Shown here: piece after piece, positions 24,001 through 30,000 of the stretch
Numbering within the stretch: position 1 is the first letter of the stretch
Layout: each line of letters begins with the position of its first letter
From: an uncultured Gammaproteobacteria bacterium
GTDB lineage: Bacteria > Pseudomonadota > Gammaproteobacteria > JABCZS01
Direction of reading: 5' to 3'
DNA: 64,000 nucleotides
NCBI GenBank assembly: GCA_964443025.1
Contig: CAYUEL010000001.1
Span: forward strand, 6,155 to 70,154
Made by a program: the position numbers

Positions 24001-27000
24001 CCCAAGGCTTCTTGTGCACCGTGTACACCCATGGATTGGTCGCCAATCCAATGAAGGACTTTGTTCGGTAATACCGTAATGAGTGAATACACTTCCGTTG
24101 CAACGTAAATCAACATACCAGTGTAGGTTGTCATGATGGTCACGAAGCCAAACATGTCTTCAATTCTAAAGGTTTTAATCGTTAACATGAGGAAGCCTAT
24201 GTTCAACAATTCCACCGCCATCCACATCATGATCATCGCACCGGCAAAACCAATGATCATCAAGCTGGGACGTAAGAACAAGTTTAAGATCAACATGTAA
24301 GCCGGTGCTGCGCGGCCCCAAATATCATCCCGTGTTTCGGGGAAAATTAAACCCACCGCAACAATCGGTGCAGCGGCAATCGATTCGACGACTTGCATCA
24401 TCCAACCAATGGCCCCCACAAAGAATGTTACAAACGGTATCAGCGGCAAGAAAATACCCAACATCGCACCTTGCGCATACATGAATACGCCCAATGCTAA
24501 TATGGCGGGTATTAACAAGTTAGCAAGCGATTGCGCAACATACGCCCACGCATTGGTACAAGCACCCCAGCTGAGACCTAAGTTCAGGGCAATCAGCGTA
24601 GTACTTGCTATGGTAATTAAAATCACAGCATCTTGCGTTAATCGTTTACCATAATTCGCGGCACGGATGATCGGATCTTGCGCCACTTGCCGATTTACGT
24701 TACTGGATTTTGTTTCGTAGGTAGAACCATCACCGGTTAAATAACGGATGTAATCTTCCACACTCATGCGCGTTTCTCTGGTTGCATCATCTTGACCCTT
24801 TGCATCCAATCTTTGTAACGCTTTATTAATGGCTTCAAAATCTACGATACCGATTTCATGTTCGCCACGGGTAGTGATGTCCCCTTTCTTTTTCTTTGTT
24901 TTCGTTGATTTTTCAAATGTCTCATTTTCTTTGTCTAACGTTTCTATGTAATATTTTCCGTCCCAATGGTAAAATGTATCCCAGAATTTATTCAAGTCAG
25001 CATAACTATCGTAATCCCGCGTTACTTTAAAATAAAGAAATTGGCTATTGACGGATGCAGCCTCGGGCACGATAAATTCTGCCTTCATGTTTTGGGGTTT
25101 TTCTTCTTGATTTGCAAGCACGGTGTAATAATTCCCCGCTAAAATCCAACCATAACGTTTTAACGTATCATAATGTTGACTTTTCGCGGATTGTTTTTTA
25201 GTTTGCTCTTCAGGTTCTTGTAATATGTTTTCATAGCCCACGATGTAATTAATAAATAATTCAGCGCCACGTTTGGCATCATTGAAAAAGATATCATAAT
25301 CAGTCTCACTACCTTTATTTGTAATTTCCCGTGTAAGACCTTCTAATCCACGCGACAAATTAAATAACGCGTTGGTATAAACACGCTGACGTGCTTCATG
25401 GTTATTTTCCGTTTCATCATCCCACTTAGGTAATTCCACTCGTAATTGCCCGCATTCAGCGCCTGGTACTGTTACTTCGGCTGTACTTTTTGCATCCTCA
25501 GGATCGTACAATGAGCGATCGCCAAAGTTAATGATATTGGTATATCCCGGTGCTAAATAAACGGAATAACCACCGCTTTGCATGGCTTCTCGCGTTTCTG
25601 TATCGGCATTAAATTCATCCACGCATAACATATTTTTTGACAAATAATGAGGAAAAGGCCCACCGCCCGCAAAACTTCTACCGTCAGATAAGCTTCCCTC
25701 CAAATTGTATACATACCCTAAATTTTCTGCCGTCATGTAATTTAAATGCCCTTCAACCCCTTTGGCGCGTATAGCACCCCCTTTTTCAAAAAAATCAACC
25801 ATGGTATTCCACATCGTATCGGCTGCACCAATGCCTTGTAAGGTTAACCACATGACGATGTATTGCGATAATACGTAACCGCTACCCCCTTTGGGAACAA
25901 GCAATGCAATACCAATCACACTGCGCACGGGCATCCACATGGAATTCCATTTTTCGCCCAGGGGTTTACCTTCATTGGCGGTATTTAATGTACCGGCTAG
26001 CATGGTGTAAATAATGATGATGATACCCACCACCATGCAAACTTGGTTGAACATACCGAACAAATTGGACATGAGTACTTGATCGGGAATTGGCATATCG
26101 CCATGCTGAATTAATTCGCTACCAAAAATATTACCCAAATACCAAACAGCTAAATCTTCTTCACTGGGTGTGAAAAACGTCGGCAAATCCACGTTTTGTG
26201 CCATGGCGGTGGCGGACGTCAATAACAACACTACAATGGCTAAGATGCGCAACATAAATTACTCTCTCAAGGACGAATCCAAGTATTCTTTAAATGTACA
26301 ACCTAATTTTTTCTGCTTTAATTGGAATAACCAAAAATGGCTGCGAAATGCGTAACTGATGGCTAAGGCAGCTACAGTGAATGCCAATATCATGCTTAAT
26401 ATTTCTTTTTGAAAGGCAAGATAAACGCCATAAGCAATCACCGCCAAGCCAACCACCACATAAATAACAGTTTGTTGAAAAAACATTTTTTTGCGATCGT
26501 TAATGTCGGCCTCGGAAAGGCGCATGCGTATCATGGCGTCTTCGTAAGTTTCTGCAGGACCTCTGCTCTCTTTTTTCCAAGGCATAAAGATAGTTAAGAT
26601 AATGTCTTTACACATACCCAAAACAGATGTAAAAATACCCCATTCAACCGCATTACTGACGCTCGTTTTGGTTTTTGCAACACGCCGTGCTAAAAATCCC
26701 ATTATGTCACCATCCTATATGTTGGCATATGCAGTTGCCGTTGTTGGGTTTGAACGGATGAAATACCTTGATAATAAAATAAACCAATGGATAATAATAC
26801 GGTTAAGAAATATACAGCTGCTGAAAAGAATAATCCATACACACCTAATACGGTATAAACCATTAAGAAGCTAAAAAAGAATAAAAAGAAATGTGCGATA
26901 AGTTGCCGTCCTCGGTATTCTCGACGACCGTGGCGATCAGGCATGATAGCCACAATGCTTTCAGAAAAACGTTTGGAACATTTCATGGCAATTAATAAAA

Positions 27001-30000
27001 TACTAAATAATACGATAAATGCAGTGGTAGCTACGGTAACATGAAATACACCGGATTCATCATTTAAAGAGATTTCTTGCAATTGCAATACAGGGGCCCA
27101 TTGCATCAATGTAGTTGTCACGCTCGGCAGGTTAAACAAAGTGATACTTAGAATAATCATAGGTACCAGTATAAAAACAAGTATCCCTTTTTTTATTGAT
27201 AAACCCGATGCAATTTTTGCCAGATAAATACCCATGACAGGAGCCAGAAAAAATGGCCAACTCAGTACTAAAAAATTCCAACTTCGTAAATAACGTTCGG
27301 GATTGAGCGAAGGGAAATACACAGGATAATGCATTTCATCCAAAAAATTCATCGGTAATAATGTCAGCATGAAACTTGAAAGTAACCAAGCAATAGTGGC
27401 AAAAGCCGTTTGACGAAATAAGATACCTGCAAAGGAATATTTTGTTTTTGCTTGATCACGCAATCGTTTTGCGAATCCATATATAACATTCATCATGTAA
27501 AATGTTAAAATAAAGACCATGCCGGTTAACATGGGCATTAACGGTTGATGTACATTAAAAAAAGCTAATACAGTGCTTGAGGCATTTACCACAAAAAATG
27601 TCATGAGAGAAAAGATAGCCAACATTAATCCCACCAAAACAATCCAATCAAATAGCAACGCAGTGGCTGCAAATTTATCAAAACGATTGGCGAGAAACCC
27701 TGAATGCCGAACATAGGGTAAAGCATTATAGGCCAGTGCAATGCCGATGATAACAACCCACGCTTGCACACAATTACGAACCACATAAGCTAATGCTTCG
27801 TTGGCTGCAACGGTTACTAAAATAGGTTGTTCTTGTACTGAAAACATCACGGGTTGAATTTGCATACTCATTTGGGCCACAAACCACGATAACCCTAACA
27901 ATAAACTGAATACTAATGCAGTGGTTCCTACTATTTTCAACAAAGAAGTTTGTTTATTATCGATTTTCCATTGATGATCACGTTGCTTCCATGCAAGATA
28001 ACCCACGCAGGGTAATGCAAGCAATCCGATAAACGGCAACACCTGCGTCAACAACGCTTGGTGATACAGTGTTACAACAAGTGGCACCGCATGTATCAAC
28101 AGCAACGCGATAGCTAAGCGCTTCGTTGTAAATAGAGCAGGTATTTTCATCGGTGTTAACCTCCCCCGCCACCAAAGGCACCTTTAACTGCACCCTCTGC
28201 CTGCCCTTGTTTTTCAGCACTGCTTTTCTTACCGCCTTGCTTCTCTTCTTCTTTCTTTTGTTCCTTTAACATATCATCAAACTCTGCACCCAGGCTGCCA
28301 AATGTGCCACCTTGTATTGCCAATAATGCTTCGATACGCGACATTTGCTCATACCGTTTCAATTCAAGGTAGTTTTGAAAAGCAATCATGTTAGCGATTT
28401 CACGCAACAACACATCGGGAGCCGCAACATTCATTTGATCATACCATCCTGTATTCATGTAACGGCGTTCCACTTCGTAATACATCATTTCAAGTAAACT
28501 GGCTTTGCCATCTTCCCCAACCTGTAATCCCTGTGCAAAATTATCTAAACGCACACGGTCCGCATAAATGGCTAGTAAAGAATTTTGCACCATCGTTAAA
28601 GAAGGAATTTGTCTATATATGGATGCAAAGTAATTAATGCCTTCATCCGATAATCCACCTTTTTTATTGAATAATTTATCTTCATCTTTAGGATAACCCG
28701 AGGGCGATGGGTTGGTAATGTTTGTGATGAATCGGTAAGCTGCTTCTTTTTTTTCCTCGGTTTCATATGCGCGTGTATCCAGGAACACACTGGCTAACAT
28801 GTCATCCCCTGAATTAGGCTGTGCATAATCACATTTAGGTGAGGGTTGACCATCCTCACCTACACAATAAGTCGCTCGATCCGTAGCAAATTTTGCATCG
28901 CTGATACTTTTAGAATAAGCATCATAATTTGCGAGTTTTCGCACGAACGTATCTTGCCAACTTTCTAAAGCATCTTCAGCTTGAGGCATACGCCCAGCGA
29001 TGATTTTTGTAATATCATTACCCGGGGGCGGTACGGGGTCTGCCGCATTTGCCAATAAACTAAAACCCACTAAGCTCACTGCCAGTGTCCACATGCAGAA
29101 TAATCGAATACTTTGCCTCATACGGTGACTTCCCCAATATTTTATAGGTTCTATAACTTACTTTATAACGTAATTCTTTATTGTTCTACAACCATGCCTA
29201 CATTTGGACTTACTTTTCTGCTTTCTCCATGGCGCTCATGACCATGCGAAACCGTTCTGGTGCGAATATACGTCCCAAGAGCTGCAACCGCTCGAATACC
29301 AGGTTTCTATTTAAAAAGAAGCCTGGGGTATCTTCCTTGCTGCTACTGGCTACTTCCGCAAAAATCAAAAGCTTGGAGGCCGAACCTGGCATCAGCTGAT
29401 CTACATGCTGTAAAAACCGCAATGCACGTGATGATTTGATGCTGGTGAGTACCTTAATAAAGCTATCTTCTTCGCCTAATTGAAACTTTTCTATGCCTTC
29501 GGCTGCATCGCAAAGCTTCAGCAGTTTGGATTCTACTTCTTCATCACCATCCAATACCCATTCTTCAACCGCTTCCATGGTGGCAATGATGCGATAGAGT
29601 GCGTAATCGTGCTTTTCCTGCCAATATTTCGCAACAACATCTCTATTTAAATCAGGCATGCTTCCTCTCCATGTTTGTTTATTTTAGCACTAAATAAGAG
29701 ATATTGTGGACCCGCCCCCTTTTAAGGGGGCAAATTCATGCGCAGCATGAATCGGGGGTTTTTATTAAATACGTGCTGAAGCAGGAGTATACTCAGTATT
29801 CTGCTGCTCATTATTATGATTTACGGATTTGCCGCGAATTCCTAGCGTTGTATGTATAGCCTTCGCATAGGTATTCAAATGGTTTTTGATTGATTTAACC
29901 GTGGGCTCTTCCCCGCTATTCTGCGGTGCAACAAAGCTAGGTCTTCCGAAACTTACTGTCATTTTACTATTCCTCCATTACTCTCTTATTATATTATTGT

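Follow-up and report, generated by a model that had tools for sequence, protein, structure and literature searches.

A BCCT-derived polytopic protein encoded between icmX and icmV in a type IVB secretion locus of an uncultured gammaproteobacterium

The window analyzed here is a 64,000-nucleotide (nt) stretch of contig CAYUEL010000001.1 from an uncultured gammaproteobacterium, and it carries much of the dot/icm gene set of a type IVB secretion system (T4BSS). Between its icmX-like gene and icmV lies a 482-amino-acid (aa) open reading frame (ORF), for which gene X is used as a working label. X descends from betaine/choline/carnitine transporters (BCCTs): its fold, the register of its motifs and a transitive chain of sequence homology agree on this origin. 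Because X has the fold, the topology and the homology of this family and falls short of its Pfam threshold, Trp cage and GRT motif, it should be described as BCCT-derived and not as a BCCT transporter. A preliminary description of the locus had proposed either a novel subunit or a transporter recruited to the system, and the recruited-transporter origin is the part that now has support, through the BCCT ancestry. Tentatively, X is read here as a co-opted BCCT transporter shell that would now serve as a lineage-specific accessory of the DotA/IcmV/IcmX inner-membrane module. Together with its sequence relatives, X founds a small protein family that appears restricted to T4BSS loci.

BCCT ancestry and the degenerate substrate site

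X is a polytopic protein, as first described. The hydropathy profile has ~12 hydrophobic segments, and the loops predicted to be cytoplasmic carry ~30 Lys and Arg residues versus 2 in the periplasmic ones. This bias between alternate loops indicates a topology with both termini in the cytoplasm (N-in/C-in). The AlphaFold2 model, built on alignment A2 (16 sequences), contains 12 membrane-length helices, with a predicted local distance difference test score (pLDDT) of 84.9 and a predicted template-modeling score (pTM) of 0.87. The BCCTs (PF02028; Transporter Classification 2.A.15), which include BetP, BetT, CaiT and TmaT, likewise have 12 transmembrane (TM) helices, N-in/C-in topology and a LeuT-type fold; hydropathy and model together predict this helix number and these cytoplasmic termini for X. 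In a Foldseek search of the Protein Data Bank (PDB) with the X model, all 50 matches listed are BCCT structures (TmaT, BetP, BetT and CaiT) at TM-scores of ~0.5, which places the modeled LeuT-type fold nearest to the solved BCCT structures.

Direct sequence searches find this relationship at the edge of detection. X matches PF02028 at 24.7 bits (E 1e-5), with residues 81-388 on profile positions 85-400, and does not reach the gathering threshold of 27 bits. The other 15 of the 16 family sequences have no BCCT Pfam match at E up to 1, and a further check of the members from L016 and L019 gave none at E up to 0.1. An NCBIfam scan of X, a PDB sequence search with a two-sequence X profile (E up to 10) and a tblastn search of X against plasmids were all without a match. 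A word-indexed protein search returned X and one relative, and only three sequences when the 16-sequence profile was used. When 1.84 billion cluster representatives were searched exhaustively with HMMER, 15 X-family clusters were retrieved, the full-length ones being 464-484 aa, with no ordinary BCCT among these 15 relatives. A scan of genome contigs found a single locus, on the same contig as L001. All database copies of X are labeled "hypothetical protein." Profile-profile comparison reaches further: hhalign of A2 against Escherichia coli BetT gives E 1.6e-4 and a probability of 50% over 273 columns, with the TM8 signature in register (WNFLVLSWPFFLAPVMGIYLAKIASGLSIKK). Against E. coli CaiT, the hhalign match of the X profile is weak (probability 8.5%).

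The link is closed by a bridging homologue. A scan of metagenome contigs anchored on IcmV gave 36 loci, among them L050, a 212-kb Tara scaffold with a 502-aa protein (L050_502) encoded directly downstream of icmX. This protein has the textbook BCCT motif and matches the Pfam BCCT profile at 1.8e-26 (93 bits), E. coli BetT at 3e-17 and CaiT at 1.6e-7. It also matches the X-family hidden Markov model (HMM) at 1.2e-7 in a database of ~1000 ORFs and at 1.1e-10 pairwise. A jackhmmer search started from L050_502 converges on a single set that contains E. coli BetT and CaiT, every member of the X family, and L043_463 and L035_462, which are also linked to T4BSS genes. Sequence homology between X and the BCCTs is thus traceable through L050_502, and two independent methods, hhalign and jackhmmer, place the TM4 and TM8 motifs of X in register with those of BCCTs.

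The substrate site is where X departs from the family. The binding-site residues of CaiT, which we take to be E111, W142, W147, Y150, R262, W323, W324, Y327 and M331, were confirmed at those positions in the E. coli CaiT sequence; the BetP counterparts of the cage are presumably W189, W194, W373 and W374. Residue states were tabulated in CaiT numbering for 11 full-length X-family members. W142 (an alignment gap in the window copy), W324 (window P299), Y327 (L302) and R342 of the GRT motif (L317) are lost in all 11, and Y150 (I134) is non-aromatic in 10 and Trp in one. W323 is kept in 4 of the 11 (W298), W147 in 10 (W131) and W316, which completes the retained pair, in all (W291). X therefore lacks the TM4/TM8 aromatic cage of W142, W147, W323 and W324 as a set, and in the TM8 signature of the window copy W291 and W298 stand with P299 in place of the second cage Trp. 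The BCCT motif that follows TM8, ARISxGRT(I/V)RE, reads AKIASGLSIKK in the window, its Gly being mostly kept across the family. The Gly-rich TM3 stretch of BetT is also missing in X.

Conservation within the X family peaks elsewhere. Residues 392-410 have the highest mean conservation of any segment, and P404, G408, R410 and R413 are invariant in all 11 members in A2, R413 lying just past this segment, in TM11. They belong to MPxxxGRRxxR, a motif that, on the alignments, is specific to the family and new relative to BCCTs, in a loop predicted to be cytoplasmic. Unlike BCCTs, X has this motif and occurs only inside T4BSS operons. At the corresponding site after TM10, BetT and CaiT have SADSGA and VNACS, while L050_502, L035_462 and L043_463 share the "MP" with X.

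Distribution and divergence of X

Besides the window, X is present in 11 distinct loci with readable context: L001/L002 (one contig), L003, L004, L005, L006, L007, L008 (with L017 and L018), L009/L010, L015, L016 and L019. X, IcmV (145-158 aa) and DotA are directly adjoining in 11 of 11, and IcmX directly precedes X wherever the upstream end is present. Where genes were called in these loci, the junctions are as tight as in the window: the spacing of icmX and X lies between a 1-nt overlap and an 18-nt gap, and that of X and icmV between a 13-nt overlap and a 6-nt gap. The preliminary description had named clear homology to a generic permease without conservation in other T4BSS loci as the finding that would count against it; the likeness to BCCTs is remote and degenerate, and the slot is kept in every one of the 11 loci.

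The carriers of X are annotated as uncultured Gammaproteobacteria metagenome-assembled genomes (MAGs). The closest IcmW relative with an order- or genus-level name is from a "Legionellales bacterium" MAG (66% identity), and Legionella species are at ~49%. In a neighbor-joining tree of IcmW, IcmV and DotA, the X-bearing loci that could be placed form one clade. Identity to the window copy is 24-50% for X, 35-48% for IcmX, 36-66% for IcmV, 40-56% for DotA and 65-81% for IcmW, and in seven of the eight loci compared, X is the least identical of the five operon genes. X orthologues are truncated at contig ends only, and the 11 near-full-length ones (464-484 aa) have neither a frameshift nor an internal stop. 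Because full-length orthologues at 24-50% identity occupy the same slot, the ORF is not a product of chance.

Conservation across T4BSS lineages (Legionella, Coxiella and others), as known for IcmV, DotA, DotE, DotP and IcmT, is not a property of X, which occurs in a single clade and is folded like a transporter. Most of the other loci have the divergent Legionella-type layout, with icmX/icmW on one strand and icmV/dotA on the other, and lack X; it was absent from ~15 such metagenome loci.

BCCT-like genes adjoin Dot/Icm region-I genes in two further T4BSS clades. L050_502 and L035_462 are encoded directly after icmX, L043_463 by the fourth gene after dotD-dotC-dotB, and a fragment of a BCCT-like gene follows dotB in L034. 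Like X, these genes are BCCT-derived, encode polytopic proteins of 460-500 aa and stand beside region-I genes. Unlike X, they belong to other clades in which icmW-icmX is divergent from icmV-dotA, and hence they do not lie between icmX and icmV. L050_502 and L043_463 score above the Pfam threshold for BCCTs, the latter at 3e-12. All four cage Trp residues are kept in L050_502 and three in L043_463 and L035_462, and these three proteins also keep the GR motif that X has lost. Judging by its sequence, L050_502 is probably a real transporter.

Other polytopic proteins occupy comparable positions. In L014 (7468-13284; GCA_018061105.1), the order is icmW, a 522-aa protein, IcmX fused to PAN domains (602 aa), a 482-aa polytopic protein, icmV and dotA. 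This L014_482 protein has the slot and the length of X, and BLAST, HMMER and hhalign (TM8 region only, E 0.36) found no significant similarity to X; it is either an analogue or a hyper-divergent homologue. Polytopic proteins of 433-463 aa follow the apparent dotD-dotC-dotB genes in L043 (11066-15055, minus strand) and L024 (4849-8307, minus strand; dotC-dotB only), where the dot genes were assigned by size, order and strand. L024_433 aligns with X by hhalign over TM7-9, in register, at E 0.0025, which is suggestive and does not establish homology. Coxiella CBU_1646 is listed as a predicted membrane protein, and its gene presumably also follows dotB. The 468-aa proteins beside icmV/icmW in L045 and L036 are ordinary APC amino-acid permeases, unrelated to X. 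No BCCT-like gene was found near dotA/traY in the MPF_I plasmids of Klebsiella and Xanthomonas.

CBU1651 is a hypothetical gene of the Coxiella burnetii icmW-icmX operon that Dot/Icm function reportedly does not require (PMC4117601). Like X, it is a lineage-specific extra gene within the icmW/icmX transcription unit. X is not this Coxiella-type gene, with which a comparison had first been proposed: CBU1651 lies upstream of icmX, between icmW and icmX, whereas X lies downstream of icmX, before icmV, and has 12 TM helices. The CBU1651 slot is empty in the window, where the 88-nt gap between icmW and icmX contains no ORF. It is filled by genes for proteins of 147-263 aa without a Pfam match in L006 (2673-3188), L007 (1697-2272), L008 (4503-4946), L009 (4380-4913), L013 (7595-8386) and L019 (4225-4713). 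Those of L013 and L019 have at most one hydrophobic segment.

The operon and its surroundings in the window

The features of the window are listed in Table 1. The assignments of icmW, icmV and dotA first made from the sequence are upheld by the Pfam and NCBIfam matches given there. For the icmX-like gene, the match in the window is weak, and its orthologues in related loci match the TraW-like family PF28212; a locally built IcmX HMM retrieves icmX-like genes across the loci.

Table 1. Gene X, its operon and other features of the window
Feature	Coordinates	Strand	Description
gene X	26702..28150	-	482 aa, ATG start; predicted 12-TM BCCT-fold inner-membrane protein
GGAGG Shine-Dalgarno-like motif for X	28160..28164	-	within last icmX-like codons, 9 nt before X ATG
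W131 codon, TM4, family motif LQTW	27758..27760	-	equivalent of CaiT W147; one cage Trp retained in 10/11
degenerate BCCT TM8 signature WNFLVLSWPFFLAPVMGIYLAKIASGLS	27197..27280	-	codons 291-318; aligns with BetT (hhalign, jackhmmer)
motif MPDRHGRREYR	26912..26944	-	codons 403-413; predicted cytoplasmic loop TM10-TM11; consensus MPxxxGRRxxR
icmW	29210..29659	-	149 aa; PF23130 1.9e-44, NF038222 3.5e-40; first recognizable gene of co-directional block
icmX-like (TraW-like)	28156..29121	-	321 aa; directly upstream of X; NCBIfam conj_TraW 2.5e-6 (weak)
icmV	26259..26702	-	147 aa; NF038219 2.2e-29, 102 bits, above cut-off; alignment A3
dotA	23772..26255	-	827 aa; TIGR04346 6.5e-88, NF033886 3.3e-106; last gene of block
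hairpin, G+C-rich	23620..23643		10 pairs; between dotA and convergent Sel1-repeat gene
DotG, DotH, DotI	3502-7473		Dot/Icm set
DotB, DotC, DotD	8204-10711		Dot/Icm set
IcmS, DotM, DotL	10760-14661		Dot/Icm set
ATPase_2 (PF01637) AAA protein	14662-16143	-	directly after dotL; paralogue of 40387-41844
large effector-like ORF	17256-21428	-	1390 aa; N-terminus DnaJ (J) domain-like by eye
large effector-like ORF	21565-23598	+	677 aa; Sel1-like repeats by eye, long poly-Ser tract
small ORF	29765-29962	-	65 aa; between recombinase-like gene and icmW
serine-recombinase-like gene	29994-31175	-	upstream of icmW
leucine/ketone-body catabolic block	31189-38682	-	syntenic with icmW operon
ATPase_2 (PF01637) AAA protein	40387-41844	-	among fatty-acid/leucine catabolism genes
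giant effector-like ORF	50783-63979	-	4398 aa

The junctions around X are tight, and both features noted in the preliminary description can be read in the sequence. The icmX-like stop codon TAA (28158-28156) is followed by five nucleotides, CACCG, and then by the X ATG at 28150. At the X/icmV junction, ACATAATGG, the X stop codon TAA (26704-26702) and the icmV ATG overlap by one A at 26702 (TAATG). X is thus encoded within the dot/icm cluster, and the spacing points to co-transcription with its known components. From its position, the hairpin downstream of dotA likely ends the transcription unit. In scans of 23500-31400 for promoters and terminators, site counts did not exceed those of shuffled sequence, so the scans speak neither for nor against a single operon.

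There is one dotA in the window. Tandem DotA paralogues are encoded in other loci, two in L006 (6132-10954), L008 (7839-12735; L008/L017) and L050 (8380-12850), and three in L045 (8270-16273).

Upstream of icmW, the X clade and its sister locus encode a serine-recombinase-like protein of 377-395 aa (Pfam Recombinase, HTH_62 and weak Resolvase). Outside the window, its gene is found in L003 (4983-6131), L006 (786-1919), L008 (2420-3607), L009 (2275-3462) and L013 (5546-6682), and the proteins are highly similar between loci. The position of the N-terminal catalytic-Ser motif is not conserved (YCWRTD, YCWYIE or YYWEYD), and from its sequence the protein may be an inactivated recombinase that serves as a DNA-binding regulator of the operon. 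The 65-aa ORF next to it is unlikely to be a true conserved gene, because the ORFs of similar size in related loci do not align. The catabolic block encodes acetoacetyl-CoA synthetase, HMG-CoA lyase, enoyl-CoA hydratase, carboxyltransferase, thiolase and acyl-CoA dehydrogenase, and is also found upstream in L003, L008, L009 and L013. This synteny across loci indicates that the T4BSS region sits in a stable chromosomal neighborhood and not on a mobile island.

Proposed role of X and its significance

Recruitment of DotB to the pole requires IcmV, a protein of the inner membrane (PMC9302130). For DotA-IcmX, Yue et al. 2025 (as cited in PMC12981334) report a place at the center of the Dot/Icm machine, as its pentameric protochannel and gatekeeper.

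In the reading tentatively favored here, X would descend from a BCCT transporter whose gene already stood in linkage with icmX. X would be made from one polycistronic message with IcmW, IcmX, IcmV and DotA, and its translation would be tied to that of its neighbors by a ribosome-binding site inside icmX and by the stop/start overlap with icmV. The BCCT fold and topology would have been retained while most of the quaternary-ammonium aromatic cage was lost in the X clade, and selection would now best preserve the Arg-rich MPxxxGRRxxR loop on the predicted cytoplasmic side. Since most of the cage is lost and the loop is the best conserved part, X is, in our opinion, unlikely to be a classical osmolyte or choline importer any longer. 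It would instead partner DotA, IcmV and IcmX, perhaps during assembly, in docking at the membrane or in gating, and some sensing of ions or solutes may have been kept. That X is co-translated with its neighbors, associates physically with the machine and has lost canonical transport is inferred. In transceptors such as SLC38A9, which are sensors or scaffolds with a transporter fold, the function may reside in cytoplasmic elements and not in substrate flux. SLC38A9-type transceptors have the LeuT fold in common with X, and for X they may serve as an analogy only.

Several points weigh against such an accessory role. X is absent from the sister locus L013, which has the co-directional order icmW-(263-aa gene)-icmX-icmV-dotA. 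Region I of Legionella oakridgensis has the divergent layout, with dotD-dotC-dotB followed by dotA and icmV in the opposite orientation and then by icmW-icmX and a glycosyltransferase gene, and contains no polytopic or BCCT gene, as the preliminary description had stated for canonical Legionella. X is missing in L013 and Legionella and is thus dispensable for a working T4BSS in general. Any association of X with DotA, IcmV and IcmX is predicted from gene context, and the AlphaFold2 model comes from a shallow 16-sequence alignment. BCCTs are trimeric, and a trimer has no obvious place in a machine of 5-, 6- and 13-fold symmetry. The two helices that form the substrate site in BCCTs, TM4 and TM8, rank next in X-family conservation after the Arg-rich loop, with W131 and W291 nearly invariant, which is compatible with a functional transport core for a new substrate. 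The loss of motifs is judged on distant relatives and is no proof that transport was lost.

The main competing explanation is plausible, though somewhat less likely: X would still work as a secondary transporter of the BCCT superfamily, with a changed substrate such as a host-derived solute or an ion. It would be placed in the operon merely for co-expression with the secretion system during intracellular life and would make no contact with the machine. The modeled fold and 12-TM topology, apparently retained in full, would fit such a transporter, as would the standing of TM4 and TM8 among the better conserved segments. So would the complete BCCT signature of L050_502 in the same icmX linkage and the Pfam-recognizable BCCT of L043 behind dotD-dotC-dotB. 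Against it, the cage for trimethylammonium is largely gone in 11 of 11 members and the GR motif after TM8 is lost, and the strongest conservation is in a cytoplasmic loop and not in the core. An active transporter is also harder to square with X having the lowest identity among the operon genes in all but one of the eight loci compared, and with the failure of the Pfam BCCT profile on 15 of 16 members.

It is improbable that X is a passenger, that is, a former transporter trapped between essential genes, in slow decay and kept for the translational coupling of icmV-dotA. Decay would fit several observations: X evolves faster than any other gene of the block, its catalytic motifs have eroded, L013 lacks it cleanly, and its G+C content (0.381) is below that of its neighbors (0.43). 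However, the 11 intact orthologues have persisted although even DotA is only 40-56% identical, and the new invariant motif MPxxxGRRxxR has been maintained. A confident model with 12 helices and invariant loop residues is likewise unexpected in a decaying gene.

We consider it highly unlikely that X is unrelated to BCCTs and that the likeness is a generic LeuT-fold or hydrophobic-composition artefact: the sub-threshold Pfam match in one of 16 members, the empty PDB sequence search, the hhalign probabilities of 8.5-50% and the Foldseek TM-scores of ~0.5 leave room for it, but TM8 and TM4 are in register by two independent methods and L050_502 joins the X and BCCT sides with significant E-values.

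A bolder form of the accessory role combines two proposals. X would be a stoichiometric Dot/Icm inner-membrane subunit that docks or gates the DotA-IcmX channel through its Arg-rich loop, and the linkage of BCCT genes to T4BSS genes would be ancestral in Legionellales, with L014_482, L024_433 and possibly CBU_1646 as hyper-divergent descendants. The two together are unlikely.

The role of IcmV is poorly understood, and X is a candidate addition to the inner-membrane part of the T4BSS, which is the least understood. Encoded exactly between the genes for IcmX and IcmV, X offers a handle on how the channel is anchored or regulated in the inner membrane, with the practical limit that all of its carriers are uncultured. 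In the literature searched, "BCCT" was not co-mentioned with the T4BSS terms used. BCCT-like genes recur in three separate clades of T4BSS loci, as neighbors of icmX or dotB, which suggests that quaternary-amine transport and type IVB secretion are functionally tied. If the accessory role of X is true, the family would be a clear case of a solute transporter that was co-opted into a secretion-system operon and then stripped of its binding site.

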